Of a DNA stretch of 64,000 nt, positions 40,567-64,000 are shown one piece after another. Positions within the stretch are counted from its first letter, which is position 1. Each line of letters opens with the position of its first letter. The position numbers and the translations under genes are program-made. Under the pieces are notes generated by a model, which did not search any database, had not been told where the DNA came from, and worked only from the letters and a program-made list of their open reading frames with translations. The stretch is taken from positions 8,264 through 72,263 of the forward strand of contig CALUTG010000005.1 of assembly GCA_944323615.1 (NCBI GenBank), read 5' to 3'. Origin of the DNA: Candidatus Gastranaerophilales bacterium (GTDB taxonomy: Bacteria > Cyanobacteriota > Vampirovibrionia > Gastranaerophilales > Gastranaerophilaceae).

Positions 40567-41106
40567 ATGTCACGTATTGGTAAAAAACCTATTGAAATAC
40601 CTTCAGGTGTTGAAGTAAAAATCGAAGGTAATGTATTTACGGCAAAAGGACCTAAAGGTACTGAATCTGTTACTTTTAGAGATGAAGTTAAGGTTTCTGT
40701 TGCTGATAACCACGTAATCGTGGAAACAAATTCCGATGACAGAAAAACCGGTGCTTTACACGGTCTTTTCAGAACATTGATCGCAAACGCAATCACAGGT
40801 GTTTCTAAAGGATTTGAAAAGAAATTAGAAATCGTTGGTGTTGGTTACCGTGCTAACATGGAAGGTTCTAACCTTAACATGGCTCTCGGTTACTCTCACC
40901 CTGTAATTATTACTCCTCCTGCAGGTATTACCCTCAGTGTAGAAGCTAACACAAAGATTACGGTTCAAGGTTCTAATAAACAAGCAGTCGGTGATGTTGC
41001 TGCATTCATCAGAAGCAAACGCCCTCCTGAAGTTTACAAAGGAAAAGGTGTTAAATATGAAGGCGAATACATCAGACGTAAAGCTGGTAAAGCTGGTAAA
41101 AAGTAA
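40567..41106 (+). CDS. rplF: 50S ribosomal protein L6
   Basis: 179 aa. MSRIGKKPIEIPSGV start. Confidence 0.97.
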   Translation: MSRIGKKPIEIPSGVEVKIEGNVFTAKGPKGTESVTFRDEVKVSVADNHVIVETNSDDRKTGALHGLFRTLIANAITGVSKGFEKKLEIVGVGYRANMEGSNLNMALGYSHPVIITPPAGITLSVEANTKITVQGSNKQAVGDVAAFIRSKRPPEVYKGKGVKYEGEYIRRKAGKAGKK

Positions 41107-41125
41107 GATAGACGTGCATGAGCTT

Positions 41126-41250
41126 TGCGAACGCTACGTAGGGGTAAATATCAGATTATTCCTGAACTTGTTTCAGGATCTCCTGCGGGAGCAAGTGCGA
41201 ACGCTACGTAGGGGTAAATATCAGATTATTCCTGAACTTGTTTCAGGATC
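41126..41250 (+). repeat. two identical 55-bp direct repeats (period 70 bp) in the rplF-rplR spacer
   Basis: TGCGAACGCTACGTAGGGGTAAATATCAGATTATTCCTGAACTTGTTTCAGGATC at 41126-41180 and again at 41196-41250. Each contains the CTACGTAG palindrome, GGGGTAAAT and the CCTGAA-CTTGT-TTCAGG hairpin. Confidence 0.95.
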
Positions 41251-41415
41251 CCATGCGTAAGCCGGTGAGAAGACCGAAAAGACTTGCAGAAGTGTAAGTC
41301 TTTGGAGGACGAAACACCACAATACCGCCGGCGGAAGAGCCGGAAGAATAATACAAGCCCATATAAACTCTTGAGTGGTATCAAGCAAGTTTGGGTAAAA
41401 GAAAGGAAAAACCAA

Positions 41416-41784
41416 ATGATTAAACAAGAAATTAGAAAACCAAAAGTACAAAAAAGACACCAGTCTATCAGAGTCAAAATTTCAGGAACTTCTGAATTCC
41501 CTAGACTGGCTGTATACAGAAGTACAAAACACATCTATGCCCAGTTAATTGATGATGAAAAACATGTAACTATCTGTTCTGCATCATCTGTTGACAAAGA
41601 CCTTAAAGAAAAATTAGCACATGGCGGAAATATCGAAGCTGCAAAAGTTGTCGGTGAAGCTATTGCTAAAAAGGCTAAAAAAGCAGGTATTGAATGTGTA
41701 GTATTTGACAGAGGCGGTTTCCTCTATCACGGCAGAATTGCTGCATTAGCAGAAGCTGCAAGAGAAGCCGGTTTAATGTTCTAA
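41416..41784 (+). CDS. rplR: 50S ribosomal protein L18
   Basis: ORF 41284-41784, with the start moved to ATG 41416 (GAAAGGA upstream). [17 protein letters not shown]; 122 aa. Confidence 0.93.
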
Positions 41785-41806
41785 TTCATAAACCAATGAA
41801 AATATT

Positions 41807-41860
41807 CAGAGCGGGATGTGACTTTAAGTCACATCCCGCTCTGTTGTTTTATTTATTTTT
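41807..41860 (+). terminator. strong intrinsic terminator after rplR
   Basis: Near-perfect hairpin of about 15 bp, CAGAGCGGGATGTGAC...GTCACATCCCGCTCTG, followed by a T-rich tract. Confidence 0.9.
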
Positions 41861-41889
41861 TTGATAAAATACTTTTGAGGGCATTGATT

Positions 41890-43959: not shown

Positions 43960-44360
43960 TGCGCAAACTTTTTCTGCTTGCAATAATATCTTTAATCTTT
44001 TTGTGCGGTTGTGTATACGAAAGAGGGATAATTTTATTTAATACTCAGCCTATAACAAGGGAGAATGCGCTTAGCGACGAGAAAATATTTAGAGAGGGAC
44101 AAAAAGTTTATTACCTTTTTATTGCTCCTAAAAAAATGAAGAATAAATATATTCGTATTCAGATATTTAAAATGACTGATTTAGCTCCGACCGGAGGAGC
44201 AGAGATAGTAAGGACAAAAGATTTCAGACTAATGAAAGATGAGCGGTACTACCATTCAGATTATTTTATTCTGTACACTCCCGGTAAATACGTAATGCAG
44301 GTATTTTCTATTGATGATTTGCAGCATCCTCTTTCTATCGGAGATTTTTATATAAGGTAG
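43959..44360 (+). CDS. small lipoprotein
   Basis: 133 aa with lipobox LIFLCGC. Its start overlaps the TPR gene stop (TAATG). Confidence 0.7.
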   Translation: MRKLFLLAIISLIFLCGCVYERGIILFNTQPITRENALSDEKIFREGQKVYYLFIAPKKMKNKYIRIQIFKMTDLAPTGGAEIVRTKDFRLMKDERYYHSDYFILYTPGKYVMQVFSIDDLQHPLSIGDFYIR

Positions 44361-44415
44361 ATTTAAGGGGAAAATTATTGTATAATTATCAGGTACAATC
44401 CCGGGAGGAATAAGA

Positions 44416-45282
44416 ATGAGCGAGATATGCAAGAACTGGACTGAATGGCTTAAGAAAAACAGATTTGCCGGTCAGACACCGGAAATGGTTGAGCAAACTA
44501 CACGCTGGCTGGAAGCGGTAAGAGATGTAATACTTGTCTATGCGGAAATTAAACCTTATGATGTTGTTCTTGATATTGGTACAGGAACAGGTCTTCTTGC
44601 TTTTAAGGCTCTTGAAATGCAGGACTGTAAAGGTAAGGTGATTTTCTCCGATAAGTTTCAGGATTGTTTAGATGACTGCAAAAAAATTCTTGATGATGCA
44701 GGAATTACAACGGGTTATGAGATGATTCAGTGCCCTTGTGAGCATATTGCACTTCCTGAAAGCACCGTTCACAAGGCATTGATGAGATCCGTTCTTGTTC
44801 ATATTGTTAATAAACAGCCTGCAATAAGTGAAGTATACAGAGTGCTTAAACCGGGCGGAAAGTTCTGTGCTTTTGAACCTATTATCCGATCTAATACAAG
44901 GTATTGGGAAATCCTTGATCCTGTTTATATTGAAAAGTATGAGGATTTTAAAAAGGTTGAGAACGAACTTATGGAAAATCCGCTGGATTCTCTCTGTAAC
45001 TTTGACGAAAGTACTCTTAAGACAAATCTTGAGATTGCAGGATTTTCTATACCGGAAGTCCGTGTTCAGGCTGTGCAGTCAAAATATGTAGTTCAGTCGA
45101 ATATGGTTAAAGAATGGTTTGTAAATCCGCCTTCTCCTGATCAGCCTAGTACAAGAGAAAGGTTCTTGAAATATTTTGACGAGCAGACTGTTGATAAATA
45201 TATGCAGGACGTCCAAAACTATCTTACCGGGCGTGAAATACAGTTGAAGTCCAACGCAGTATTTATTAATGCAACCAAGTAA
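44416..45282 (+). CDS. class I SAM-dependent methyltransferase
   Basis: 288 aa. Motif I VLDIGTGTGLLA, and later LKPGGKF. Confidence 0.8.
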   Translation: MSEICKNWTEWLKKNRFAGQTPEMVEQTTRWLEAVRDVILVYAEIKPYDVVLDIGTGTGLLAFKALEMQDCKGKVIFSDKFQDCLDDCKKILDDAGITTGYEMIQCPCEHIALPESTVHKALMRSVLVHIVNKQPAISEVYRVLKPGGKFCAFEPIIRSNTRYWEILDPVYIEKYEDFKKVENELMENPLDSLCNFDESTLKTNLEIAGFSIPEVRVQAVQSKYVVQSNMVKEWFVNPPSPDQPSTRERFLKYFDEQTVDKYMQDVQNYLTGREIQLKSNAVFINATK

Positions 45283-45293
45283 AAGAGGAAGTT

Positions 45294-46064
45294 ATGAGTG
45301 AGAATCAGACAGCAATAATAATTCCGGCAAGATACGGATCATCAAGACTTGAGGGCAAACCGCTTTTAAAAGCAAATGATAAGCCAATTATTCAGTGGGT
45401 TTGGGAAAAAGCAAAAACGTGTCCTTATGTAGACAGGGTTATTGTTGCGACTGATGATGAGAGAATCTTTAATGCTTGCAAAGAGTTTGAGGCAGAAGTT
45501 GAAATGACTTCAACCGATCACAAAAGCGGTAGCGACCGTATTGCTGAAGTTGCCCGCAGACATCCAGAGATTGCGTATATAATTAATCTTCAAGGGGATG
45601 AGCCTTTAATAGAACAAGCAAACATAGAGCTTGTAATAAAAGGGGTCAAATTTGACGATAAAGCCGATATTTCAACCCTTGTTCGCGAAATTAAAGAAGA
45701 TGATGAGATAAATAATCCTAATTTAGTCAAATGTGTCTTTGATTTAAATGGCTACGCAATGTATTTTTCCCGTTCCAAAATTCCTTTTGAGCGCGGAGTA
45801 GATGAAGAAAACAAGGCTGAAAAACGAGCAAACGGAGGCTGGAAGTTTTACGGGCATCTGGGTATTTATGGATACAAAAGAGACGCGTTATTCAAGATGA
45901 CGGAACTTCCTCAAGCATCTTACGAGAAAGCTGAAAGCCTTGAACAATTAAGAGCACTCCAAAACGGGATGAAAATAAAAGTCTCAATTGTAGATAATAT
46001 TCCGGTCGGGATTGATACAATAGAAGACTTTGAAAAGTTTAAGGCTATGGTCGAAGGGATTTAA
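45294..46064 (+). CDS. kdsB: 3-deoxy-manno-octulosonate cytidylyltransferase
   Basis: 256 aa. IIPARYGSSRLEGKPL, NLQGDEPL. Confidence 0.92.
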   Translation: MSENQTAIIIPARYGSSRLEGKPLLKANDKPIIQWVWEKAKTCPYVDRVIVATDDERIFNACKEFEAEVEMTSTDHKSGSDRIAEVARRHPEIAYIINLQGDEPLIEQANIELVIKGVKFDDKADISTLVREIKEDDEINNPNLVKCVFDLNGYAMYFSRSKIPFERGVDEENKAEKRANGGWKFYGHLGIYGYKRDALFKMTELPQASYEKAESLEQLRALQNGMKIKVSIVDNIPVGIDTIEDFEKFKAMVEGI

Positions 46065-46072
46065 GAGTATAA

Positions 46073-47128
46073 ATGAACCTTAAAACAGAAATAACAAAAC
46101 TTCATTATACAAGAGATCCGAAAGGAGTTCTATTTAATCTCCTTAAGTTTTGTTCTGTTTTTTATGGGCTGGGAAGCGGTTTTAAGAACTTTTTATACGA
46201 TAAAGGTATAATTAAACCTAAAAAAGTTGATGCCTATGTAATCTCTGTTGGCAATTTTACTACAGGCGGGGTCGGAAAAACTCCTGTGGTAGCGGAGCTT
46301 GCAAAATATTTTGTAGATAAAGGAGAACGGGTCGCAATTATTTCACGCGGTTATGGCGGAAAACTCGACAACAAAAAGGTAAATGTAATATCTGATGGTA
46401 TTAATTTATATTACAAAGCTGATATGGCCGGAGATGAACCGTACTGGCTCGCTGTTAATCTGAATATGTGCGCAGTGTTAACCTGTTCTAGCAGATTCAA
46501 AGCCGCAGAATATGCAATAAAAGAGCTTGGCGTTACAAGAATAATTCTGGATGACGGATTCCAGCATAGAAAACTCCACAGGGATTTAGATATTGTACTT
46601 GTAGATTCCGAAAAAATGTTCGGAAATGAAAACCTTCTGCCTGCAGGACCGCTAAGAGAGGGACCTGAAGGTTTTAAAAGGGTGGATAAACTTGTTATAG
46701 TAAGTAAAAATATTGATCACACCAGAGCAGAAAAGCTTGCAAAAATAATGGAGAAAAAGTTCTTCAAAAATACTGCCCCCTCACCCCAACCCTCTCCCGC
46801 AGGGCGAGGGCACGTTATCCTCTGCAAAGTTGAGCCGGATTATGTCTACAATATTGTTACAGGTGAACATTTAGAAAAAGGAGAAGAGATAACTGCGCTC
46901 TCCGCAATCGGGCAGCCGGAACAGTTTTACCAATTCTTAAAAGATTATCAAGTTAAAGAAACAATAACTTTTGATGATCATCATCAATACACCTTAGATG
47001 ATATTAAAAATGTTGAAGGAAATCTTGTTACAACTGAAAAGGATGCGGTAAAACTTTCGCTTCTCGGCAAAACAAATATTTACGCACTTAAACTAAAAAC
47101 TATATTGGATGTAGAAAAATTAATATAG
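46073..47128 (+). CDS. lpxK: tetraacyldisaccharide 4'-kinase
   Basis: 351 aa. P-loop GNFTTGGVGKTP, ILDDGFQH. Confidence 0.9.
   Translation: MNLKTEITKLHYTRDPKGVLFNLLKFCSVFYGLGSGFKNFLYDKGIIKPKKVDAYVISVGNFTTGGVGKTPVVAELAKYFVDKGERVAIISRGYGGKLDNKKVNVISDGINLYYKADMAGDEPYWLAVNLNMCAVLTCSSRFKAAEYAIKELGVTRIILDDGFQHRKLHRDLDIVLVDSEKMFGNENLLPAGPLREGPEGFKRVDKLVIVSKNIDHTRAEKLAKIMEKKFFKNTAPSPQPSPAGRGHVILCKVEPDYVYNIVTGEHLEKGEEITALSAIGQPEQFYQFLKDYQVKETITFDDHHQYTLDDIKNVEGNLVTTEKDAVKLSLLGKTNIYALKLKTILDVEKLI
46775..46813 (-). repeat. GC-rich hairpin plus G-tail repeat embedded in-frame in lpxK
   Basis: The plus strand reads GCCCCCTCACCCCAACCCTCTCCCGCAGGGCGAGGGCAC. It encodes APSPQPSPAGRGH inside otherwise AT-rich coding sequence. 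Confidence 0.7.
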
Positions 47129-47228
47129 ATTTCTTTCTCCGCCCCGCTCTATGCTCTTGAAAAACTCTTATTTTTGATGTAATTTTAAATCGTAAAAGAA
47201 TTTTTACAGAAAAAGAAGGAGAACTCAC

Positions 47229-48188
47229 ATGAGTGAAAGAAAATTAGTTGGAACACAAGAGATGTTCAAAAAAGCTTTAGCCGGCGGATACGCTATCGGT
47301 GCTTACAATGTTAACAACATGGAAATCCTTCAGGCTATCGCTGAAGCTGCTGAAGAAACAAGATCACCTATTATTTTACAGGTTTCAGCAGGTGCAAGAA
47401 AATACGCTAACCAAACTTACTTAATCAAGCTTGTTGAAGCAGCATTGGCTACTACAACTGTACCTATCGCTCTTCACTTAGACCACGGTGCTGATTTTGA
47501 AATTTGTAAAGCTTGTATCGACGGCGGTTTCTCTTCTGTTATGATTGACGGAAGCAGATTCCCGCTTGAAGAAAACATCGCTCTTACTAAACAGGTTGTA
47601 GACTATGCTCACGCAAGAGGAGTTTCAGTTGAAGCTGAATTAGGTAAATTAGCAGGTGTTGAAGACGATGTTAAAGTTCACGCTAAAGATTCAACTTACA
47701 CAGATCCAGAAGAAGCTGCTAGATTCGTTAGAGAAACTGGCTGTGATTCTTTAGCTGTTGCTATCGGTACTTCACACGGTGCTTACAAATTCAAAGGCGA
47801 AGCTAAATTAGACTTTGAAAGACTCGCTGAAATTAAGAAAGCTGTTAATGAAGTTGTCGGATATGACTATCCATTAGTTCTTCACGGTTCATCTTCAGTT
47901 CCGAAAGAATTTGTTGCTAAATGCAACCAGTTTGGCGGTAAATTACCTGATGCTCAAGGTGTTCCTGAAGAAATGCTTAACTACGCTTCTAAACACGGTG
48001 TAGCTAAAATTAATATTGATACAGATTTGAGATTAGCTATGACTGCTACTATCAGAGAGTTCTTTATTGAACACCCTGAAAAATTTGACCCTCGTGAATA
48101 CATGGGACCAGGCAGAACCGCTGTTAAAGAAATGGTTATGCACAAAATGAGAGATGTATTAGGTACTGCAGGTCACGCTGACGACTAG
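47229..48188 (+). CDS. fba: class II fructose-bisphosphate aldolase
   Basis: 319 aa. HLDHG, and metal or substrate motifs GTSHGAYKF, LVLHGSS. Confidence 0.92.
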   Translation: MSERKLVGTQEMFKKALAGGYAIGAYNVNNMEILQAIAEAAEETRSPIILQVSAGARKYANQTYLIKLVEAALATTTVPIALHLDHGADFEICKACIDGGFSSVMIDGSRFPLEENIALTKQVVDYAHARGVSVEAELGKLAGVEDDVKVHAKDSTYTDPEEAARFVRETGCDSLAVAIGTSHGAYKFKGEAKLDFERLAEIKKAVNEVVGYDYPLVLHGSSSVPKEFVAKCNQFGGKLPDAQGVPEEMLNYASKHGVAKINIDTDLRLAMTATIREFFIEHPEKFDPREYMGPGRTAVKEMVMHKMRDVLGTAGHADD

Positions 48189-52460: not shown

Positions 52461-55148
52461 CTAATTTTCTTTCCAGGATTCTCCGCAGCTAAGATCCAGA
52501 ACCAGCGGAACTTTAAGCGGCTGATTGAGTTCCATGGAATCCTTAACAATTAATTTAACTTCTTCAAGTTCTTCTTTTGCTACTTCAAACACAAGTTCAT
52601 CATGAACCTGCATAATCATTTTTGTTTTAAGATTTCTTTCTTCCAACCGCTTTTCAACCTCTATCATAGCCATTTTTATTAAATCGGCGGCGGTTCCTTG
52701 AAGAGGCTGGTTAATCGCAGCTCTTTGAGCAAATTCTCTTATCTGGAAGTTAGGGCTCTGAAGTTCTGATGCTAAGTAGCGTTTTCTTCCAAATATTGTT
52801 TCCACATATCCGTGCTTATTTACAAAATCAACTTCGTAATTCATATAATCTTTTACGCCCGGATAGTGCTGGAAGTATTTGTCAATAAATTCTTGAGCTT
52901 CCGCGTTAGATATACCGATACTCTTAGCAAGTCCGTATTTGGATTGTCCGTAAACTATACCAAAATTAACGGCTTTGGCTTTTCTTCGCATTTCTTTGGT
53001 GACTTCACTCAAAGAAACTCCAAAAACTTTAGAAGCTGTCATTGTATGAACATCTTCGCCTGACGTGAATGCGTGAATAAGGTTTTCATCTCCGGATACA
53101 TGCGCAAGCAGTCTTAATTCAATCTGGGAATAATCGGCAGATAGGATAAGATAGTTTTCTTTGTCCATTGCACAAAACGCAGCGCGGATTTTGTTTCCTT
53201 CTTCCGTTCTTATAGGAATATTCTGCAAATTAGGGTTTGAAGAAGACAATCTTCCTGTAACGGTAAGCGCCTGATTGTAAGTTGTATGAATTCTTCCGTC
53301 ACGCTTGCTTATAAGAGCAGGGAGCGCATCCGTATAAGTGGATTTTAGCTTAGAAAACTTCCTGTGCTGAAGAATATAATCGCAAATTTCATACTCTGCG
53401 GCAAGCTCTTCCAATACTTCTGCACTTGTAGAACGGCTTTTACGCTTTTTTGTTTTTAAGCCGAGTTTATCAAATAAAACTTCTGCTACTTGTTTTGGTG
53501 AGTTTATATTGAAAGGTCCTCCCGCAAGTTGATAGATTATATCTTCAAGCTCTGCGAGCTTTTCTGTCATAAAATCGGAAAGCTCTTTTAGGTAGTTTAC
53601 ATCAATTGCAACTCCGGTGTGTTCCATTTTTGCAAGAACTACAGTCAGCGGAATTTCTATATCTGATACTAATTTCTTTTCTTTTTCATCAAGATTTTCT
53701 ATCCAGTAATCATATAGTTTTAGAACCGTGGAAGCTTCGTCGCAGCAAAACTTTTCTCCCTCATCCTGATGCGAGAGGATATGGTTTAAAAAGTCTAAAG
53801 CTTGCGCTTCAATTGTGTGCTTTCTATTCGGATCTTTAACATAACTTGCCAAAAGAACGTCATATTCAAGACCTTTAGGAGAAAAACCGTTGTTTAAAAG
53901 TATGTGGTATTCCGATTTGGCATCATACGCAACTTTTTTGATATTTTTATCTTCAATTATAGGTCTTAGAGCTTCTACAAATTCATTGGAGAAGAAATAA
54001 TTTTTTTCGGCTGCAATTGCAATATGGTCAATAAGCCCGTCTTTTGAATAATAGCGGATACCGATTCTTTCAGCTTTTTTAATATCTTCAATAGCGGAAT
54101 CAAAAGAACTGCGGTTTACGATTTCATATTCCAGCTCGCTGTCTTGAACGGTTTCTTTTATTGCCTGAGTAAAAATATTCTGCTGGACAGAATCTCCGCC
54201 TTGTTGTTTTTGAGGCGCAAAAAGACTCAGGTTTTCTCCGGTAGAAATAGACTGCGAATTAAAAGAAGAAAGAATTTTATCAATATTTTTAATAAATGTA
54301 TAAAACTGCATTTTTCTTAAAAAAGCGGAAACTTTTGCCATAGAAGGCAATGTAACACTTGCGGTATTTATATCAAAATCAATTTCCACGTCCCTTATAA
54401 TAGTTGCAAGATCTTTTGATAAAACAGCAATTTCTTTTTGGGTGCAGATCTTTTCTTTGACAGCTTTTTCCGGAATGTTATCACAATCCGCAAGGAGTTC
54501 TTCCAAATGCGGATATCTGCTTAAAAGTTTTTGAGCAGTCTTTTCGCCGATGCCTTTTATACCCGGAATATTATCGGAAGTATCCCCTCTGAGCCCTTTA
54601 TAATCCGTTACCTGATTAGGGTAAACTCCGAGTTTTTCATAGACTTTGGCCCAATCATATTCAACAAGTTCTCCTTTTGTCGGGATAAGAACTTTGACAA
54701 GTCCGTCTTGATCTACAAGCTGAAAGCTGTCTTGATCTCCTGTCAGGATAAGGGTTTCATTTCCGCTTTGTGAAGCAATTTTAGAAATTGTTCCTATAAT
54801 ATCATCGGCTTCGAAGCCTTCTTTTGTATAAATCGGAATATCAAAAGCTTCCAAACCTTCAACAATAGTGGAAATCTGGCATCTTAAAGTATCCGGCATG
54901 GCATCTCTGTTTGCTTTATATTCTTCAAACTTATCCGTCCGGAAAGTATGTCTTCCGACATCAAAAGCTACTGCTATAAAATCCGGTTTTATTTTGGAGA
55001 GCAGATCAAAAATTGCTTTAAAAAATCCGTATACAGCCCAGGTTGGCTGATTTTCCGAATTTTTCATTCCTGTTCTTTCCAATGCAAAATACTGACGATA
55101 AGCTAATGCGTGTCCGTCAATTAATACCAAAGTCTTTTTATCCGACAT
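52461..55148 (-). CDS. polA: DNA polymerase I
   Basis: 895 aa. 5'-nuclease domain, and polymerase motifs DYSQIELR and QVHDELVFE. Confidence 0.97.
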   Translation of the reverse strand: MSDKKTLVLIDGHALAYRQYFALERTGMKNSENQPTWAVYGFFKAIFDLLSKIKPDFIAVAFDVGRHTFRTDKFEEYKANRDAMPDTLRCQISTIVEGLEAFDIPIYTKEGFEADDIIGTISKIASQSGNETLILTGDQDSFQLVDQDGLVKVLIPTKGELVEYDWAKVYEKLGVYPNQVTDYKGLRGDTSDNIPGIKGIGEKTAQKLLSRYPHLEELLADCDNIPEKAVKEKICTQKEIAVLSKDLATIIRDVEIDFDINTASVTLPSMAKVSAFLRKMQFYTFIKNIDKILSSFNSQSISTGENLSLFAPQKQQGGDSVQQNIFTQAIKETVQDSELEYEIVNRSSFDSAIEDIKKAERIGIRYYSKDGLIDHIAIAAEKNYFFSNEFVEALRPIIEDKNIKKVAYDAKSEYHILLNNGFSPKGLEYDVLLASYVKDPNRKHTIEAQALDFLNHILSHQDEGEKFCCDEASTVLKLYDYWIENLDEKEKKLVSDIEIPLTVVLAKMEHTGVAIDVNYLKELSDFMTEKLAELEDIIYQLAGGPFNINSPKQVAEVLFDKLGLKTKKRKSRSTSAEVLEELAAEYEICDYILQHRKFSKLKSTYTDALPALISKRDGRIHTTYNQALTVTGRLSSSNPNLQNIPIRTEEGNKIRAAFCAMDKENYLILSADYSQIELRLLAHVSGDENLIHAFTSGEDVHTMTASKVFGVSLSEVTKEMRRKAKAVNFGIVYGQSKYGLAKSIGISNAEAQEFIDKYFQHYPGVKDYMNYEVDFVNKHGYVETIFGRKRYLASELQSPNFQIREFAQRAAINQPLQGTAADLIKMAMIEVEKRLEERNLKTKMIMQVHDELVFEVAKEELEEVKLIVKDSMELNQPLKVPLVLDLSCGESWKEN

Positions 55149-55216
55149 TTTATACTCCCGTTTGTTAGATTATTATATCATAAATTCGTGCTACAATAAA
55201 ATCTCAGGAGGCACGT

Positions 55217-56002
55217 ATGATTAACAACTATAACATTTTGTTGAATATGGTAAATGACTATAAGTCCTTAAAAGAGATAGAGGCAATAGGTCTTGGCGGT
55301 TCTTCAACCGCTAATACTGCTGATAATAAATCTGATTATGATATTTATATTTACGGAAAATCAGAGCCTCCTGTTGAAGCGAGGCGGCAAATTGCAGAAA
55401 AGTACGCGGATAAATTAGAAATAGATAACCATAATTTTGAAACCGGCGATGTCTTTTGCTTGAGGGATTCAGGAAAACCAATTGATATAATGTACAGGCA
55501 TCCGGATTTTATTGAAAATAATATTAAATGGGTCTGGGAAGAGCATAATGCTTCTTTAGGCTACACAACCTGCTTTATAGATAATATTAAAAAAACGGAA
55601 ATTTTTTATGATAAAAACGGATGGCTTAAAAAGATGCAGGAAAGGGTTGATACTCCTTATCCTGAAAAACTTGCAGAGAATATAATTAAGAAAAATTTCA
55701 ATTATCTAAAAGATGCAATGTTTTCTTTCTATGACCAGCTTGTCTCTGCCGTGGAAAGAGATGATTTTGTCAGTGTAAATCACAGATGTGCGGCTTTTCT
55801 TGCAAGTTATTTTGACGCTGTTTTTGCTAAAAATCGTATCCTTAATCCGGGAGAGAAAAAGCTTGTGCCGTTTGCGTTAAAAAATTGTAAGATTCTTCCT
55901 GAAGGTTTTGAATCGGATGTAAAAACTCTGTCTGTAGGAGAAGTTCCTAAACGTGTTCCGGCTGCTGCAAGAATGGTGGAAAATCTTAGAAAAATACTTT
56001 AA
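55217..56002 (+). CDS. nucleotidyltransferase-domain protein
   Basis: 261 aa. GLGGSS...SDYDIYIY matches the G-S...D-x-D pattern of the NTase fold. Confidence 0.6.
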   Translation: MINNYNILLNMVNDYKSLKEIEAIGLGGSSTANTADNKSDYDIYIYGKSEPPVEARRQIAEKYADKLEIDNHNFETGDVFCLRDSGKPIDIMYRHPDFIENNIKWVWEEHNASLGYTTCFIDNIKKTEIFYDKNGWLKKMQERVDTPYPEKLAENIIKKNFNYLKDAMFSFYDQLVSAVERDDFVSVNHRCAAFLASYFDAVFAKNRILNPGEKKLVPFALKNCKILPEGFESDVKTLSVGEVPKRVPAAARMVENLRKIL

Positions 56003-56070
56003 AGGGGTAAATGGGGTAAATTAGGCAATTGTAAAATGCTTCCCTTTATTTACCCCGGGCATTATTTCTT

Positions 56071-56316
56071 TTGTAAAGATTCATTTACCCCTATTTTTGT
56101 CGCTCATTTTGGGAGTTTATTTCCAATTGTAAAGATTCATTTACCCCTATTTTTGTTGCTCATTTTGGGAGTTTATTTCCAATTGTAAAGATTCATTTAC
56201 CCCTATTTTTGTTGCTCATTTTGGGAGTTTATTTCTAGTTGTAAAGATTCATTTACCCCAAATTTCAGAATACATTTGGAGATATTATTTCCAAATGTAA
56301 AGATTCATTTACCCCC
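56071..56316. repeat. tandem array: three near-identical 56-bp units, one diverged unit and one partial unit
   Basis: Units lie at 56071-56126, 56127-56182, 56183-56238, 56239-56295 and 56296-56316. Each starts (T)TGTAAAGATTCATTTACCCC. A degenerate copy at 56027-56056 and two plus-strand GGGGTAAAT at 56004-56021 precede the array. Confidence 0.95.
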
Positions 56317-56385
56317 GGCAAAAAAATCTTTTCTTTTGTTTTGAATAGTGTATAATAAAACAAAGGAAAACTGAGAATAGTTTTT

Positions 56386-57249
56386 ATGCTTCAAAATATA
56401 GTTAACAATTCAAATATATCAACTAAATCACAATACATAACAAAACCATCATCAAGATGTGATGAAATTGAGCTTTATTTAAACAGAATATTTGAAAAAG
56501 AACTTCACACTCCGGATTCGGTTTTGTTAGATTACAATCCTTTTGTCATTAAAAAGATTGCGGCATATATTTCTGGCAAAATTCAAATGCCGGCATCAAT
56601 AGGTATAGCGGGAGAAACGGCGAGCGGGAAGTCTACGATTACAATGGATTTAATTGATACAATAGAATCTTTTGCGGCGGAGTTTGGGATAGAAGATGTT
56701 ATCACCCGTGTAAATACGGATGATTATTACTATGATCGTTCTGATATGGTAAAAGCTGCAGGGAGCTTTTCAGAGTTTGCCAAAAATTATGATTTAGACA
56801 GTCCGGAAGCTCTTGAATTGGAACTTATGAGCCGGCATATTAAGGAACTTCTTGCCGGAAAGCCTACTTACCTTCCTAAATATGATATGAGCGGAACTGC
56901 AATAAGGTATGATAATCACACTCTTGCAAAACCTTCAAAAGTTATTATATCGGAGGAACTTTTTACTCTTACCCCAAAGGTAAAAGATGCATTTAATTTT
57001 AAGATTTATGTAGATATTCCGGAAGATATTAAACGAAAAAGATTCTTTGTACGAGCAGCTGAACGCGATTTGGGAGATTCTGCGGAATTTATTTATGAAA
57101 ATGCGAATAAAAAAGCAGAAGTCCATATAAGACCTTGTAAAGCACATGCGGATATTGTTTTATCAGGGTACGCAGATAGAATTAAGTATAAAAATTTCTT
57201 AAATAAAATCATAGGGATTATACAGGAAATATATTTTTCTGAAATCTAG
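56386..57249 (+). CDS. uridine kinase / phosphoribulokinase-family P-loop kinase with an N-terminal extension
   Basis: 287 aa. Walker A GIAGETASGKST, DDYY, and later IYVDIPEDIKRKR. Confidence 0.7.
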   Translation: MLQNIVNNSNISTKSQYITKPSSRCDEIELYLNRIFEKELHTPDSVLLDYNPFVIKKIAAYISGKIQMPASIGIAGETASGKSTITMDLIDTIESFAAEFGIEDVITRVNTDDYYYDRSDMVKAAGSFSEFAKNYDLDSPEALELELMSRHIKELLAGKPTYLPKYDMSGTAIRYDNHTLAKPSKVIISEELFTLTPKVKDAFNFKIYVDIPEDIKRKRFFVRAAERDLGDSAEFIYENANKKAEVHIRPCKAHADIVLSGYADRIKYKNFLNKIIGIIQEIYFSEI

Positions 57250-57262
57250 AAGATACAATAGA

Positions 57263-57949
57263 TTATTTGTTTTTGTATTTTTCCCATAAATCCGGACGTC
57301 TTTTCTTAGTGCGTTCGATTTTTTGTTCCAGTCTGAATTCTTCAATTAATTTGTGATTTCCGTTTAAAAGAACTTCCGGAACTTTTAAGCCTCGATATTC
57401 TCTCGGTTTTGTGTACTGAGGATATTCTAATAATCCGTCTGAAAAGCTGTCATCATGAGCAGATTCAATTTTCCCCAGGGTTCCTTCAATTTTTCTGGAT
57501 ACACTGTCTATAATACAAAGAGCAGGAAGTTCTCCCCCTGTAAGTACAAAATCTCCTATAGAAATTTCTCTTGGCTTAATAATTTCACGGATTCTTTCAT
57601 CAAAACCTTCATAATGCCCGCATAGAATGATTATCTGCTCATACTTTGAAAGTTCGTTTGAAACTTTATCAGTAAATGGTTCTCCCTGTGGAGTCATCAT
57701 AAGAGTAATTGTGTTATTGAGTTTTTCCATATCTTCGTATGCTTCTACATAGGGCTGCGGAGCTAAAACCATGCCTGCGCCGCCTCCGTAGGGAGTATCA
57801 TCAACTTTTTTATGTTTGTCATGCGAGTAGTCTCTTGGGTTAATTGTATTAACTTCAATAATCCCGCCTTCTGATGCTCGTTTCATTATACTAAAGTCCA
57901 TATGGGACTGTATAAGCTCTGGAAATAGGGTTAATACATCAAATCTCAT
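57263..57949 (-). CDS. trmD: tRNA (guanine37-N1)-methyltransferase
   Basis: 228 aa. MRFDVLTLFPE start, and GHYEGFDERI. Confidence 0.95.
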   Translation of the reverse strand: MRFDVLTLFPELIQSHMDFSIMKRASEGGIIEVNTINPRDYSHDKHKKVDDTPYGGGAGMVLAPQPYVEAYEDMEKLNNTITLMMTPQGEPFTDKVSNELSKYEQIIILCGHYEGFDERIREIIKPREISIGDFVLTGGELPALCIIDSVSRKIEGTLGKIESAHDDSFSDGLLEYPQYTKPREYRGLKVPEVLLNGNHKLIEEFRLEQKIERTKKRRPDLWEKYKNK

Positions 57950-58458
57950 TGGAGCAGCCCCTCAAGGTTGTTAATCTGGATTTTACGGTTTTTTATATCA
58001 ACCGAAAGAACGATTGCTTTCACAAAAGGAACAAGACAAATATTTTTTGAGAGCGTTTTAACTGACAAAAGGTCGCTCGCTCCATTGTTAGAAACTCCTA
58101 CGACGGCTCCGACTATCTTATCACCGTCATAAACATCAAGTCCGACAAGTTCATCAATCAAGAACTCATCTTCTTCCAAAAATTCTCTTGCAGAATCTTG
58201 CGGTACAAAAAGAAGTTTACCTTTGTATTCCAGGATATCATTTAAACTGTTAATATCTTTAAACTTTATAATTGCACATTTTGGAGTAAACCGAATATTC
58301 TCTATCAAAAGAGTTTTATATCCATCTTGAGTTTGCACAAAAACTTCTTTGAGTTTAGACAAAAACTCTTCCCTGTTTTTTGAATACCCAAGTTTAGCCT
58401 CACCGCGAACGCCATGGAAGTTAAGAATTTTTCCTACAGAAATAAAGTTATTCTTCAT
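57946..58458 (-). CDS. rimM: 16S rRNA processing protein RimM
   Basis: ORF 57946-58665, with the start moved to ATG 58458 (ISVGKILNFHGVRGEAKL). It overlaps trmD by 4 nt. Confidence 0.88.
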   Translation of the reverse strand: MKNNFISVGKILNFHGVRGEAKLGYSKNREEFLSKLKEVFVQTQDGYKTLLIENIRFTPKCAIIKFKDINSLNDILEYKGKLLFVPQDSAREFLEEDEFLIDELVGLDVYDGDKIVGAVVGVSNNGASDLLSVKTLSKNICLVPFVKAIVLSVDIKNRKIQINNLEGLLQ

Positions 58459-58699
58459 CTTCTTTCTTCTTAGGTTTTCTTCCGCGTTTAGGCTTTTCTT
58501 CTTCCGTAGTTTCTTCAGCCGCAGCAGGAACCGGGATCTCTTCTGTCGGTTCTGTTTTAGCCTCCGGAGCTTTCTCCTGTTTTTCGTGTTTAGCAACCAT
58601 ATAATCGGCAGGTTTGTCAGCTCGGTCTTCATTCCATCTTTCAAGTCCGAGCTGTGCACGAACAAGCTTAATACCTACGTGGACCCGCCATTCATCCAT
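58448..58699 (-). CDS. 83-aa ORF that continues the upstream zinc-ribbon protein in the same frame after TGA-AAA
   Basis: MDEWRVHVGIKLVRAQLGLERW... then an acidic/Lys-rich tail ending KPKRGRKPKKKEDEE. No Shine-Dalgarno. See the finding for this locus. Confidence 0.45.
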   Translation of the reverse strand: MDEWRVHVGIKLVRAQLGLERWNEDRADKPADYMVAKHEKQEKAPEAKTEPTEEIPVPAAAEETTEEEKPKRGRKPKKKEDEE

Positions 58700-58702
58700 T
58701 TT

Positions 58703-59401
58703 TCACTGTGTTGCAATAATTTTGTGGCAGCCAATCGGCGGCAGCGGAAGTAATGGTTCGTATAAACTCTTGATTGCCATTAGCTGATCCGGTGAAATAG
58801 CCAGCTTGCGTTTAGGGAACGGAAGTTTAGGGAGCATCATCTTCTGACGTACCAGATTAATTCCGAAGAACACTTTTTGAGGTTCAATCCCTAATTTTGC
58901 TCCGATTACTTCATGCGCATCCGGATTAGGAAGCGGAAGCATGGCTTTGTACAATACTTCTATTTGTTCTAATTGTTCTTTGCTTATTAATAATGGTTTT
59001 GCAGCTTTTTGAGGTCTAGGACGTTTGTTTTGATTGCGTTTTTGCTGGAAACCGCCTTTAGAACCTCCGCTAGCGTAATTATTTCTGAAACCTCTGTTTC
59101 CGTCCTGTCTTCTCTGGAAATTATTATTGCGGTTGTTATCTCTTCTTTGATATCCTCCGCCTTGCTGTCCGCCTCTGTTATCACGCGAGTAGTTACTTTT
59201 GTAACCGCCTTGCTGAGGTCTGTCATAACTTCTAGGCTTAGGGTCGGCAGAATATGAGCTATAAGAACTATAACTCTGAAGGGGTTTCTCCTCTGGAGAT
59301 TCGTTTCCTTTGTCTGCATAAAGACAATTCGGACAGATTACTCGTTTGGGGTTCTTTGTTTCAAACTCAGCACCACACTTAATGCACTTGTTTACATACA
59401 T
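58703..59401 (-). CDS. zinc-ribbon protein with a long RGG/QGG/N-rich low-complexity region and an internal repeat
   Basis: 232 aa. CIKCGAEF...ICPNC zinc ribbon, a region of about 90 aa rich in G/R/Q/N, then repeat 1 and the first half of repeat 2. First gene of the rimM-trmD operon. Confidence 0.7.
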   Translation of the reverse strand: MYVNKCIKCGAEFETKNPKRVICPNCLYADKGNESPEEKPLQSYSSYSSYSADPKPRSYDRPQQGGYKSNYSRDNRGGQQGGGYQRRDNNRNNNFQRRQDGNRGFRNNYASGGSKGGFQQKRNQNKRPRPQKAAKPLLISKEQLEQIEVLYKAMLPLPNPDAHEVIGAKLGIEPQKVFFGINLVRQKMMLPKLPFPKRKLAISPDQLMAIKSLYEPLLPLPPIGCHKIIATQ

Positions 59402-59517
59402 AATAAAAGCCTCTTAACCACAATAAAAAATTTCACTAAGTCTTAAATATCCTATCAAATAAAGTAATAATATGAGATTTAATCAAAATTAACGGTTAAA
59501 TATAACCGAACATGTAT

Positions 59518-59545
59518 ATTATAATACAATTTTGAAATTTATCAA
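59518..59545 (-). promoter_or_regulatory. sigma-70 promoter candidate (TTGATA-16-TATAAT) for the zinc-ribbon-rimM-trmD operon
   Basis: On the minus strand, TTGATA is the complement of 59540-59545 and TATAAT is the complement of 59518-59523. Confidence 0.5.
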
Positions 59546-59610
59546 GGGGGTGAATATAACTTATCTGGATATAATGCCCTTTAGTTTATATAAAAATAAT
59601 ATGGAATTTA

Positions 59611-60876
59611 CTAACTTTTGTCTTTCAAATATCTATTATAGGCTGCCTGAGCTATGGAATTGGCTGAACTCTGTGACATATCTCCAATACAAACCTCACA
59701 TAACCTCATGAGACCCGAACCGCCACTTGTAAATTCTCCGAGAACAGTATAGCCAAAATCTATCAAAGTCCCGCTGGCATCATACACAGAATGAAGCTTA
59801 TCAACCTGTCCATTTTTGTTTAGCACATTTTGAGTTAATCTGTATCCTAGATATTCTCCGGTTTGCTCATTGTAGACTTTTTGTATATACTGAGTTCCAA
59901 GATCATCTGTAGGAGCTGCATCTCCCATAGCCTCTACAATAATATTCAGCTTTAAATCCTGAAGAGCTGATGTATATTCAAAATCCAGATACTTTCCTTT
60001 ATAATAGGCATAATCTTTTTGGCAAATGGAAATATCTCGGGCATCCAAACAACTTGAATACCCTGATAAGCTGGCGCTTTTATTTTCTCCTCCACTACCT
60101 ACTCCTCCGGTGTTTTCACTCACTTCTCCGGTGCTTTCATCCTCTTCTGGAGGGGTTGGTTCGGCTTCTTCTTTTTTTTCTATTGGTTTCACTTCAAAAT
60201 TCTTTAAATCATTTGGAAGGGATGAATCTATATTAGCATCAGCAATTTGAATATCTTCTTTTCTCCAGTTCTTTTGTTTTTCCAAATACCATTTTCCTAC
60301 TGGATCCGCGGCTACTACCAATCCCTCTACATTTACCATAACTTTGAACCTGTCAGGTTTTTTACAATTATCTGAATACAAACAATTATTGCCATTTTTT
60401 CCGTTTACATCAAAATATATATCTGTCTGGTATGATGAATCAGCAATATCACTTGTTACAAAGTATTGTGTTCCATTTGGTATAACAAAAGAAGGTTTAA
60501 ATTTTGAATCCGAATAACTTGAGTATGAAGACAAACAATTTATTTCTCCTACAGCATTCATGCTTTTTGCCAGTAGTTCGCATAATTTGGCGGAGTTTCC
60601 TCCGACAGTTTCATTTTTTGTTAAATTTATCTTTGCGATGTTATATAAAGGTATTGTTCTATAATCAATATTTTCACCTTTATTACGAGGCGGATAAATT
60701 GTTTCATTGGATGATATTTCTCTTAATGCTGTTAGGATAGCATTGTAATTACTTATATACATTGCCTTAATAGGATCAGGTTTATATTTATTAACTAAAG
60801 GTAAAACAATGGCAGCTAAAACCCCGATTACTCCCAAACAGACTAAAACTTCTGCTAATGTATAGGCTTTTTTCAT
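59611..60876 (-). CDS. type IV pilin / pseudopilin-like protein with a large C-terminal domain
   Basis: ORF 59611-60963, with the start moved to ATG 60876 (AAGGAG Shine-Dalgarno). MKKAYTLAEVLVCLGVIGVLAAIVLP is a class III signal-like N-terminus with Glu at +5. About 390 aa follow, including an acidic E/P/T/G linker. Confidence 0.75.
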   Translation of the reverse strand: MKKAYTLAEVLVCLGVIGVLAAIVLPLVNKYKPDPIKAMYISNYNAILTALREISSNETIYPPRNKGENIDYRTIPLYNIAKINLTKNETVGGNSAKLCELLAKSMNAVGEINCLSSYSSYSDSKFKPSFVIPNGTQYFVTSDIADSSYQTDIYFDVNGKNGNNCLYSDNCKKPDRFKVMVNVEGLVVAADPVGKWYLEKQKNWRKEDIQIADANIDSSLPNDLKNFEVKPIEKKEEAEPTPPEEDESTGEVSENTGGVGSGGENKSASLSGYSSCLDARDISICQKDYAYYKGKYLDFEYTSALQDLKLNIIVEAMGDAAPTDDLGTQYIQKVYNEQTGEYLGYRLTQNVLNKNGQVDKLHSVYDASGTLIDFGYTVLGEFTSGGSGLMRLCEVCIGDMSQSSANSIAQAAYNRYLKDKS

Positions 60877-60904
60877 ACTTGAAGCTCCTTTTTTTACTAA
60901 TAAA

Positions 60905-60936
60905 CCCACCCCTGCAACATAATTACTATTATGTTG
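60905..60936 (-). repeat. AT hairpin plus CAGGGGTGGG tail, copy proximal to the pilin-like gene
   Basis: The minus strand reads CAACATAATAGTAATTATGTTG + CAGGGGTGGG. Confidence 0.8.
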
Positions 60937-61116
60937 TACTTTGCCAAGTATATCATACAACAACTGCTTTGTACAGTTCTAAACAATTTGTTCGGCAGGT
61001 CGGGTATATTTATCCCTCAAACACGCTCCCAGCTTTACCCCCTTCGCCTCCCGCTATCGTTTCGTGATAAATACACCCTCCGCCTCACCATAAGCTGAAA
61101 GTGTTATTTCTAATAC

Positions 61117-61155
61117 ATTTACCCCACCCCTGCAACATAATAGTAATTGTGTTGC
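61117..61155 (-). repeat. AT hairpin plus CAGGGGTGGGGTAAAT tail, distal copy
   Basis: The minus strand reads GCAACACAATTACTATTATGTTGC + AGGGGTGGGGTAAAT. Confidence 0.8.
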
Positions 61156-61177
61156 AAGATTTGGTTGAGTGTAAGGT

Positions 61178-61771
61178 TTAAATAAGTTTCTCAAACTCTT
61201 TCAAAACAGTAATCCCGTCATTTAGTCCGGGTGTATTTATTGCCCGCTCAGGGTGCGGCATTAATCCTATTACTTTATTTTTTCTGTCTATTATTCCTGC
61301 TATTTTGTCATCAGAGCCGTTTATATCTTCGCAGTATTTCATAAATATTTCTGTCTCCTGCGTTTTCATATAATTCCCCTGATGATGTGCTATTGGAAGT
61401 TTTATAATTTTACCTTCAAATTCTAAATCGACATTTTTTGAGATAAACTTCATAGAGCTGTTATGAGTCAGCACCCCGGGTAGAATGCCGGCTTCACAGA
61501 GGATTTGGAATCCGTTGCAAATTCCCGTAATAAGAGTTTTACCTACCGGAAGGCTCTTGACCGCAGTTGTTGTTTTAGCGAGTCTTCCTGATGAAACGTA
61601 GTCCCCGTAAGAAAAACCTCCTGGCAGGAAAATTATATCGTAGCCGTTTTTAATTTTTTCATCCTGAAAAATATACTCACTCTCCCATCCCATAAAATCA
61701 CAGGCAAGTTTTGTGTCCTTTTCGCAATTTGTACCTAAAAAAACAACAATTCCGGCTTTTATTTTTCCCAT
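61178..61771 (-). CDS. purQ: phosphoribosylformylglycinamidine synthase subunit PurQ (glutaminase)
   Basis: 197 aa. GTNCEKD, catalytic GICNGFQ, HPER. Confidence 0.9.
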   Translation of the reverse strand: MGKIKAGIVVFLGTNCEKDTKLACDFMGWESEYIFQDEKIKNGYDIIFLPGGFSYGDYVSSGRLAKTTTAVKSLPVGKTLITGICNGFQILCEAGILPGVLTHNSSMKFISKNVDLEFEGKIIKLPIAHHQGNYMKTQETEIFMKYCEDINGSDDKIAGIIDRKNKVIGLMPHPERAINTPGLNDGITVLKEFEKLI

Positions 61772-62010
61772 ATTACTTCACTTACTTCCGTTATAGGGTT
61801 GCATAGCAATTCTTCAATAATTTTGTTTACCTTTTTTTGGGCTTCTTCTTTTGTTTCAGCTAAGAGAGAAAAGTCGTAAACGGTTCCGGTTCTAAATTTG
61901 AAACTTTCATTAAAAGAACTTTTTACCGCTTCTTCAAGAGTAAGCCCGCGTACATCTTTAATACTGTCTTTAAGTTTAACAATAATCTGTCCTTTAAACT
62001 CTCCGCCCAT
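61759..62010 (-). CDS. purS: phosphoribosylformylglycinamidine synthase subunit PurS
   Basis: ORF 61759-62082, with the start moved to ATG 62010. 83 aa; KDSIKDVRG...NPITE pattern. It overlaps purQ by 13 nt. Confidence 0.8.
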   Translation of the reverse strand: MGGEFKGQIIVKLKDSIKDVRGLTLEEAVKSSFNESFKFRTGTVYDFSLLAETKEEAQKKVNKIIEELLCNPITEVSEVIWEK

Positions 62011-62023
62011 AATACGAGTTTCC

Positions 62024-62896
62024 TTATTTATTCCCGCCGTAGCGTTTTGCAATAATTTCTTCTTTTCGTTCAAGTTTTGCATAAAGCTGTGAGTTTATTT
62101 CTCCGCCAATAAGTATCAAAATAGAGGTGTAATAAAGCCATACCATCATTACGGCAAACCCTGCAATTGTACCGTATACAAAGTTATAAGTATGAAGGTT
62201 GTTAATATAGACCGAAAACAGCCAAGAACCAAGCAGCCAGGAAATACAAAAGAAAATAGAGCCCGGCAGAGCACTGTGCCTGCGGAGTTTTTCGTTTCCG
62301 CTAAAGTCTGGCAGTATATAATAGCTAAGATATGCCATAATAAATAGGGTCAAAAATGCAACCGGCCAGCGGACAAATAACATTATGTTTGCAAAATGCT
62401 GGGTCATGCCAAGATATGTAACCAAAAATTTTATTATAACTTTACCGAAAACGATTAAGTTAACGCTTAAAAACAGTACAAGTATGTTTACAAAAACCAT
62501 AATTAAGGCGAGGAGTCTTGAGCAGAGAAAACTCCTTGTTTCTTTAACTTTATATGCCCTGTTTAATCCTTTGGCAACAATTGCAACGGTATTTGTAGAA
62601 AGAAAAAGGGTTATGCAGAAACCTAAAACAGCAATCAGTCCGCCTTTTTTAAAGAAAAACACTTCGTTTAAAACGGTATTTACTACATTTACAACGTCAT
62701 GAGGCATTATACTCTGCATAAAAACGAATATAGGCTGCATGAAGTTTTGTTTTCCTATATATCCAAAAATAGCGGTAAGAAATAATAAAAACGGGCAGAT
62801 ACCTATACAGAGCATATATCCCATTTCGGATGCCATTCCGAAATAGTCATGTTCTATAACTGATTCTACTATATTTCTTAGTGTTTTAAATTTCAC
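62024..62896 (-). CDS. YihY/BrkB family membrane protein
   Basis: 290 aa with six hydrophobic spans. The N-terminal ...MASEMGYMLCIGICPFLLFL pattern is typical of YihY. Confidence 0.75.
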   Translation of the reverse strand: MKFKTLRNIVESVIEHDYFGMASEMGYMLCIGICPFLLFLTAIFGYIGKQNFMQPIFVFMQSIMPHDVVNVVNTVLNEVFFFKKGGLIAVLGFCITLFLSTNTVAIVAKGLNRAYKVKETRSFLCSRLLALIMVFVNILVLFLSVNLIVFGKVIIKFLVTYLGMTQHFANIMLFVRWPVAFLTLFIMAYLSYYILPDFSGNEKLRRHSALPGSIFFCISWLLGSWLFSVYINNLHTYNFVYGTIAGFAVMMVWLYYTSILILIGGEINSQLYAKLERKEEIIAKRYGGNK

Positions 62897-63839
62897 GTTC
62901 TATCTCTTTCAGTAGTTTTTCAACAGACTCTTTAATGCCGTATTTCATGGTGCATCCTGCGGCAAAAGTATGTCCTCCGCCTCCGTAGACAGAGCATATT
63001 TTAGCACAATCTATGTGTTTTGACCTCATAGAAACTTTTGTTGTTTTAGAATCAACTTCCTTTACGACAAAAGATACTTCGGTTGAATCTATTGCTCTTA
63101 AGGTTTCGGCTATTCCATCCGTATAATCATCGCCGGCTGAGAATTTTTCTAAGTCTTTCTTATACACGGTTGTGTATGCAATTTTATTATCATTTTTAAA
63201 TTCGGCTTTATTTACACAGTAGTTTTGAAACATTACAAGATTTTTTGTTTTTGTCTCGTAGCATAGTTTGTAAAGCTGATTAGGGTTTGCACCTGCCTCA
63301 ACCAGTTCCGCAACAGCTCTGAATACGTTTGCAGAAGTGTTTTCAAAACGGAAGTTTCCAGTGTCTGTCATTATTGCGGTATAGAGACATATTGCGGAAT
63401 CTTTATCAATCTTCCAGCCATGTTCTTTAAAATAATTAAACAAAACTTCGCCCGTAGAGCTGGAATCAGGATCTATAATATTATAGTCTCCAAATCCGGG
63501 ATTGGTTTTATGATGATCTATATTAACTCTGACTTTTGCCTTATTAAAGAAAATTTCTGAATCCCGCACTCTCTCAATAGATGCAACATCAAGAGTTATA
63601 ACAAGGTCATAAACAAGAGACTGGTCAAAATATCTTTCAGCCAGATTTATATTAGGTAAAAATTTGTAGTTATAAGGCAGGTTAGATACAATATTCATAT
63701 CTGCCTTTATCTTAAACCTGTTATAAATCATGGAATACATAGCGCACATTGAACCCAGCGTGTCTCCGTCAGGGTTAACATGGCTTAATAATAATATCTT
63801 TTTTGAGCTTTTTATGATATCATCAAGATTACAATTCAT
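62886..63839 (-). CDS. nrnA: DHH/DHHA1 phosphoesterase (NrnA-type oligoribonuclease / pAp phosphatase)
   Basis: 317 aa. SHVNPDGDTLGS, IDHHKTN, GGGHTFAAG. Confidence 0.85.
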   Translation of the reverse strand: MNCNLDDIIKSSKKILLLSHVNPDGDTLGSMCAMYSMIYNRFKIKADMNIVSNLPYNYKFLPNINLAERYFDQSLVYDLVITLDVASIERVRDSEIFFNKAKVRVNIDHHKTNPGFGDYNIIDPDSSSTGEVLFNYFKEHGWKIDKDSAICLYTAIMTDTGNFRFENTSANVFRAVAELVEAGANPNQLYKLCYETKTKNLVMFQNYCVNKAEFKNDNKIAYTTVYKKDLEKFSAGDDYTDGIAETLRAIDSTEVSFVVKEVDSKTTKVSMRSKHIDCAKICSVYGGGGHTFAAGCTMKYGIKESVEKLLKEIEREI

Positions 63840-63880
63840 TGCATTATAATATCACAAAAATGCAATAACCAAGGAAATAA

Positions 63881-64000
63881 ATGAAAAAAGTTCTCTATAC
63901 AGATTTTGAAGGGGTGGAATCCGTCATTAGTTCAATGATGGATAATCCTCAGCTAAAAAAAGCAATTACCAAAACAAATTTGTATAGCTTCTGGGATAAA
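63881..64000 (+). CDS. 5' end of an ORF (40 codons, runs off the window), possibly DUF721-like
   Basis: MKKVLYTDFEGVESVISSMMDNPQLKKAITKTNLYSFWDK. AAGGAA upstream. The family guess is weak. Confidence 0.3.
   Translation, partial: MKKVLYTDFEGVESVISSMMDNPQLKKAITKTNLYSFWDK

Follow-up and report, generated by a model that had tools for sequence, protein, structure and literature searches.

An in-frame TGA private to one assembly interrupts a conserved zinc-ribbon and predicted double helix-turn-helix gene upstream of rimM-trmD in gut Melainabacteria

The interrupted gene and its operon

The DNA analysed in this study (hereafter the window) is a stretch of 64,000 nucleotides from contig CALUTG010000005.1 (positions 8,264 to 72,263, forward strand) of the GenBank assembly GCA_944323615.1, assigned to a Candidatus Gastranaerophilales bacterium. 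On its minus strand, immediately upstream of rimM and trmD, lies a gene that is interrupted by an in-frame TGA at codon 233 (Table 1). This TGA was found to be a one-base difference private to this assembly; rather than a recoding signal, it probably represents a base-call error or else a private mutation of very recent origin. The gene itself is a member of an unnamed, strongly conserved family of gut Melainabacteria and Ktedonobacteria.

The TGA is followed by a single AAA codon and then by an in-frame ATG (58699), which opens the second of the two open reading frames (ORFs) called at the locus and leads to a TAA stop at 58450-58448. An earlier note on this DNA had described exactly such a layout on the minus strand, with a 232-aa ORF, a TGA-AAA-ATG junction and an 83-aa ORF, and the sequence bears it out. 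The ATG of rimM (58458) overlaps the stop of the 83-aa ORF by 11 nt (ATGAAGAATAA), while trmD overlaps the 3' end of rimM by 4 nt. The gene-rimM-trmD trio, including the 11-nt overlap, was retained in eight Melainabacteria loci (L001, L002 and L084-L089), among which the outer neighbours vary.

It had also been proposed that the gene occupies the slot upstream of rimM that is normally taken by rpsP or a KH-domain gene. This was upheld for the position only, without homology to rpsP or KH proteins. The interrupted gene resembles the corresponding gene of the rpsP-(KH protein YlqC)-rimM-trmD-rplS operon in its position and in its translational coupling to rimM-trmD, but differs from it in having no S16 or KH similarity, no match to either domain being obtained for the window protein in Pfam or NCBIfam at E<=1.

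Table 1. Features of the interrupted gene and its surroundings in window coordinates.
Feature	Position	Strand	Remarks
Interrupted gene of the zinc-ribbon / disordered-linker / double helix-turn-helix (HTH) / AT-hook family	58448..59401	-	317 codons, TGA at codon 233 (read-through translation)
232-aa ORF	58703..59401	-	Called under table 11; holds zinc ribbon, linker, HTH-1 and helices 1-2 of HTH-2
83-aa ORF	58448..58699	-	Called under table 11; Met235 start; holds helix 3 of HTH-2, acidic spacer and basic tail
In-frame TGA, codon 233	58703..58705	-	Coding-strand base 58704 is G here, T (TTA, Leu) elsewhere
Codon 231	58709..58711	-	ACA (Thr) here, GCA (Ala) in all relatives and runs; 7 bp upstream of the TGA
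C4 zinc ribbon, residues 1-30 (Cys6, 9, 23, 26)	59312..59401	-	AlphaFold2 predicted local distance difference test (pLDDT) ~95
Disordered R/G/N/Q/Y-rich linker (RGG/QGG), residues ~35-130	59012..59299	-	AlphaFold2 pLDDT <50
Repeat 1, predicted three-helix homeodomain-like HTH, residues 137-193	58823..58993	-	BLASTP, AlphaFold2, Foldseek, Pfam
Repeat 2, second predicted three-helix HTH, residues 200-256	58634..58804	-	BLASTP, AlphaFold2
Basic tail KPKRGRKPKKK, AT-hook-like	58463..58495	-	Invariant in the close clade
rimM	57946..58458	-	TIGR02273, E=9e-35
trmD	57263..57949	-	TIGR00088, E=3e-95
Private base in PRK-family kinase gene (56386..57249)	56957	+	GAA (Glu191) here; GGA (Gly, motif IISEGLF) in X1, X2, L001 and L089
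Promoter-like TTGATA-16-TATAAT	59518..59545	-	11/12 consensus matches, ~115 nt 5' of the start codon; site count in the region equals the shuffle expectation

Conservation at codon 233

With residues 130-317 of the read-through product as the query, 1,915 proteins were retrieved at E<=1e-3. Among the 120 matches listed, lengths ranged from 283 to 360 aa, save for four fragments, all from contigs of less than 1.4 kb, and one of these listed relatives is named 'Cyanobacteria bacterium SIG28', that is, a member of the gut Melainabacteria. When 1.84 billion representatives were searched exhaustively with HMMER, only 172 clusters were recovered. Two intact 317-aa members (P0002 and P0126) are 97-98% identical to the window read-through product.

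Each of the 16 close orthologues aligned out of the 1,915 matches is a single ORF with leucine at codon 233, reading A-A-Q-L-K-M-D-E-W where the window reads A-T-Q-stop-K-M-D-E-W; comparison with orthologues, suggested in the earlier note, thus found one continuous frame in every case examined. Among 27 diverse members, aligned with identities down to 19-28%, only nine columns are invariant and Leu233 is one of them, so that leucine is present in all 16 close and 26 diverse relatives, and a stop in none of them. The codons used for this leucine vary: the Melainabacteria loci have TTA and CTC, and CTT, CTC and CTG are among those found in 45 Ktedonobacteria loci. This variation indicates that selection acts on the leucine. 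The note was correct in taking TTA as the ancestral codon, one transversion away from TGA. Met235 is likewise invariant in the alignment of close orthologues, and the ATG after the stop is therefore the family's ordinary internal methionine and not a restart device.

Comparison with same-strain and population data

Amongst approximately 15 billion proteins, the 232-aa and 83-aa products occur on this 73,660-bp contig alone, and the 90% cluster of the split products contains intact members of 314-317 aa. One of the intact proteins, P0126, equals the window read-through product except for T231A and for leucine in place of the stop at codon 233. Its locus (L089) derives from an independent European Nucleotide Archive assembly; over 6,954 bp only positions 58711, 58704 and 56957 set it apart from the window. 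The changes private to the window in this comparison are TGA for TTA, ACA for GCA 7 bp away, and a Gly-to-Glu replacement in the PRK-family kinase; all three fall on conserved residues and all lie within 1.75 kb.

The same two sense codons, TTA and GCA, were read in eight out of eight metagenome runs (X1-X6, X8 and X12) compared as Logan contigs, which lose minor variants. These runs come from at least four studies and include chicken gut, manure and other metagenomes. As far as such contigs show, they and the orthologues agree on the TTA reading that had been set down beforehand as evidence against unusual explanations of the stop. Run X1 represents effectively the same strain, with zero differences over 28001-48000; over 55001-64000 it differs at 56957, at 58704, at a two-allele site (62468) and also at 58711, its depth around the private sites being ~5-9x. 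A 68-base query, built so that each of its 31-mers spans one of the two private bases, detected the TGA allele in no indexed run; this is a weak negative result, given that only three words were sampled.

At window position 62468, run X1 carries two alleles (T and C) at an equal depth of 6.6 each, which points to sub-strain heterogeneity in that chicken-gut sample.

A second TGA was observed in the same gene of a related strain (L088; sample ERZ24773394, SPAdes NODE_76, coverage 5.5), where TGT has become TGA at Cys9 (L088:2540-2600, approximately window 59351-59375). Seven substitutions are concentrated within ~25 bp around Cys9 in this locus, while the next ~430 bp aligned differ from the window at only two sites, both synonymous. 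As a result of the Cys9 TGA the gene is called there from Met154 (P0125, 164 aa). The L088 cluster reflects either errors at low coverage or a second, independent inactivation of the gene.

Two other sources of the substitutions were considered and rejected. A recombination tract from a diverged strain does not account for the three private bases, as the window lacks the alleles typical of X2-X8, L001 and L088. Targeted mutagenesis by a diversity-generating retroelement or a deaminase was discarded for both the window and L088 because the changes are mixed (T>G, G>A, T>A, A>G and C>A) with no consistent signature.

Domain make-up of the gene product and its relatives

The earlier note had described an internal repeat that runs through the stop, with 21 of 57 positions identical. 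The repeat is real: with the leucine restored, BLASTP aligned residues ~135-196 with ~197-260 without gaps (23/58 identical, E=6e-10), and the residue of repeat 1 opposite the stop is, as had been stated, a leucine encoded by TTA. The CxxC...CxxC pattern and the KPKRGRKPKKK tail that had been pointed out are both present in the read-through product.

In the structure predicted by AlphaFold2 from the 27-sequence alignment, each repeat forms a bundle of three helices, at residues 141-154, 162-170 and 174-187 in the first module and 204-217, 225-233 and 237-251 in the second, with pLDDT mostly above 90. The repeat is thus predicted to be a homeodomain-like HTH that is present twice. Leu233 is predicted to be the final residue of helix 2 in the second bundle, and a stop at this codon entails the loss of helix 3 of HTH-2, the acidic spacer and the basic tail. 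Helix 3 is the usual recognition helix of an HTH. Towards the N-terminus, predicted strands at residues 2-5 and 12-15 belong to the zinc ribbon, whose four cysteines are each at least 90% conserved in the 27-member alignment; zinc-ribbon Pfam matches were obtained in most family members, all of them weak and under the cut-offs. The linker between the ribbon and the first module varies in length among relatives, as indicated by indel-rich columns in both alignments.

Foldseek against the PDB returned a best match of E=0.013 (probability 0.96), below significance. The top matches are tandem tri-helical DNA binders, with complexes of the DUX4 double homeodomain with DNA at the head of the list and tandem engrailed, POU, NarL/DosR and Tc3 also among them. 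Weak Pfam matches recurred among the 27 members, namely Homeodomain in 11 (best 1.9e-5), HTH_23 in 10 and Sigma70_r4_2 in 9. In the Pfam and NCBIfam scan of the window protein itself, no family covered it, the only matches being sub-threshold ones to zinc ribbons and none falling on the repeats. A PDB sequence search with the family profile recovered no relative, and a literature search on Gastranaerophilales with rimM returned only unrelated microbiome papers.

The predicted architecture shares with tandem homeodomain-like, or bipartite tri-helical, HTH proteins (DUX4 HD1-HD2, POU, Tc3 and paired-type) the two three-helix modules joined by a short linker. It differs from tandem homeodomains in that the protein is bacterial and also carries a zinc ribbon, a disordered linker of RGG type and a basic tail, with DNA binding as a predicted property. 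The tail is similarly reminiscent of the AT-hook (HMGA-type, core R-G-R-P); however, the core here is RGRKP, with a lysine before the proline, and members of the Ktedonobacteria clade lack the motif. In Melainabacteria members at a greater distance the tail contains KRGRPKK or RRGRPPG, with the canonical RGRP in P0133, P0135, P0144 and P0146.

Because the repeat is predicted to be a homeodomain-like HTH and relatives carry a canonical RGRP AT-hook, the gene product is more likely to bind DNA than RNA, and could be a putative nucleoid-associated protein or global regulator rather than an RNA-binding assembly factor. The suggestion of the earlier note that the RGG tract confers RNA binding is accordingly not favoured, as the predicted folded parts point to DNA instead.

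The Ktedonobacteria clade contributes 149 confirmed genome loci of distant homologues. In the two loci examined (L028 and L047) the homologue follows a kinase-helicase fusion, has GT4 glycosyltransferases downstream and is not beside rimM, a different context which suggests that the link with rimM is clade-specific. The fusion proteins at these loci (L028:195-3110 in Ktedonobacter racemifer; L047:9-3155 in Thermogemmatispora carboxidivorans) combine a Ser/Thr kinase with a DinG/XPD-like helicase (Pkinase + DEAD_2 + Helicase_C_2).

The family merits study; its members unite a zinc ribbon with a disordered RGG-type linker, a predicted tandem homeodomain-like unit and an AT-hook-like tail, and in gut Melainabacteria the gene is tied to rimM-trmD.

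Interpretation of the TGA

The stop is confined to this assembly, the leucine that it replaces is conserved, and the private changes lie close together. On balance we infer that the cause is an artefact of assembly or base calling rather than a real rare allele. The gene would then be an ordinary 317-aa frame, the first translationally coupled gene of the gene-rimM-trmD trio in gut Melainabacteria, and the T-to-G change at codon 233 would, together with the two nearby private substitutions, be a consensus or base-call error of a low-coverage metagenome assembly. In that event the organism would make the full-length protein, with nothing unusual at codon 233. This explanation draws on the absence of the variant from the independent same-strain data (L089, X1 and all eight runs) and on the density of private changes, three in 1.75 kb compared with none across a separate 20 kb. 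Three changes at conserved residues, two of them within 8 bp, at a depth of ~5-9x make up the pattern expected of a stretch backed by very few reads, and a comparable defect affects this gene in L088, also of low coverage. When genomes are assembled from metagenomes at low coverage, single-base consensus errors and private nonsense alleles present the same single substitution, neighbouring private changes, ~5-9x depth and apparent split gene, and the window case is not different in kind. The option of a recent nonsense mutation or sequencing error, which the earlier note had listed first, is backed by the orthologues, the eight runs and L089 alike.

Several observations weigh against an artefact and would instead suit a genuine, very recent TTA-to-TGA nonsense mutation, linked to A231T, in a strain or minority sub-strain of the chicken-gut population; such an allele is plausible, though the less probable account of the stop. 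It would represent a nascent pseudogene or a transient deleterious allele, with a 232-aa product lacking HTH-2 helix 3 and the basic tail. The TGA is, after all, present in the deposited assembly. The contig of run X1 that carries TTA has a depth of 5.2 compared with 8.3-8.9 on its flanks and, the sample being heterogeneous at 62468, a minority TGA sub-strain may be present there, while the loss of minor variants from Logan contigs limits what their uniform TTA can say about it. Random errors seldom get past De Bruijn assemblers that require a k-mer to be seen twice, and two linked changes are hard to obtain from independent random errors if at least two reads are required. Purifying selection would yet have to act on very recent single-nucleotide changes, and the independent TGA in L088 means that two copies of the gene are broken, which could reflect real recurrent inactivation. 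On the other side, the TGA allele is missing from the contigs of the eight runs, from L089, from L001-L003 and from every database orthologue; Leu233 is invariant in a strongly constrained family; and the clustering of the private changes described above is unusual for real point mutations. A polar mutation at this place should also be costly, as the downstream trmD is normally essential. With a real TGA, ribosomes would terminate 250 nt early, which, to judge from the overlap with rimM, would be expected to weaken coupling into rimM-trmD unless some of them restarted at the Met235 AUG. It is very unlikely that both TGAs are real, in the sense that inactivation of this conserved, putatively double-HTH gene recurs in populations of chicken-gut Melainabacteria (at Leu233 here and at Cys9 in L088), the Leu233 allele being tolerated through restart at the Met235 AUG 4 nt downstream and the coupling to rimM-trmD thereby preserved.

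Programmed recoding appears extremely unlikely, whether as read-through of the UGA by a near-cognate or suppressor tRNA or as selenocysteine, or as termination-reinitiation at UGA-AAA-AUG that would yield two functional polypeptides and a flow of ribosomes into rimM. The frame is indeed preserved with an AUG one codon past the stop, as in known cases where an in-frame UGA is closely followed by an in-frame AUG, and the 83-aa ORF still ends in the conserved rimM overlap. Unlike in those systems, the stop is unconserved and replaces an invariant leucine, the AUG is the conserved internal Met235, and no orthologue has a stop. No Rfam family, whether of the selenocysteine insertion sequence (SECIS) or any other kind, was matched at E<=1 within 56000-61500 in this search for described elements, a Shine-Dalgarno-like sequence was not found before the AUG (ACACAGTGAAAAATG), and the break falls inside what is predicted to be a compact three-helix domain. 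A selenocysteine or other recoding element was therefore rejected, there being no Rfam match and leucine in all relatives. Of the mechanisms raised in the earlier note, UGA read-through was not backed for these same reasons, and neither was termination-reinitiation, since the ATG is the family's invariant Met235 and the junction exists on one contig only. The chance that TGA is reassigned throughout the genome (code 4 or 25), the gene being intact as written, is negligible. TGA is admittedly the rarest stop in the window, closing 5 of the 53 long frames (TAA 32, TAG 16), one of these five being the interrupted ORF itself. Against reassignment, 52 ORFs that are each at least 150 aa long tile the window when table 11 is applied, rimM, trmD and others end at family-typical positions, and the relatives encode leucine rather than tryptophan or glycine at codon 233, the same strain elsewhere having TTA; ORF density and stop usage in the window thus speak against this candidate, which was rejected. 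No tRNA gene was found in the 64-kb window.

This TGA accordingly does not belong among the examples of bacterial read-through, reinitiation or split genes. The best annotation of the gene is a single 317-aa frame, with pseudogene status reserved for the case that the TGA is borne out by reads. Furthermore, an assembly with at least three private substitutions at conserved residues in 1.75 kb calls for the same check on other single-base oddities in the genome.

Other observations at the locus

The 209-nt spacer 5' of the interrupted gene contains both the promoter-like site and a small hairpin whose tail is rich in T (CGGTTATATTTAACCG TTAATTTTGA) and which follows the site within ~10 nt (window 59493-59545, minus strand); these are consensus matches only. 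Further upstream lies a pilin-like gene (59611-60963, minus strand) whose N-terminus and length depend on the strain, with 450 aa here compared with 423 aa in L088 (1064-2335). Many small indels occur in 60800-61040, and the remainder of this gene is nearly identical to L088. Downstream of the operon, the intergenic tandem-array region at window 56102-56294 has an extra 112, 33 and 24 bp relative to L088. As 112 bp corresponds to 2 x 56, the copy number of the 56-bp array appears to differ between strains.

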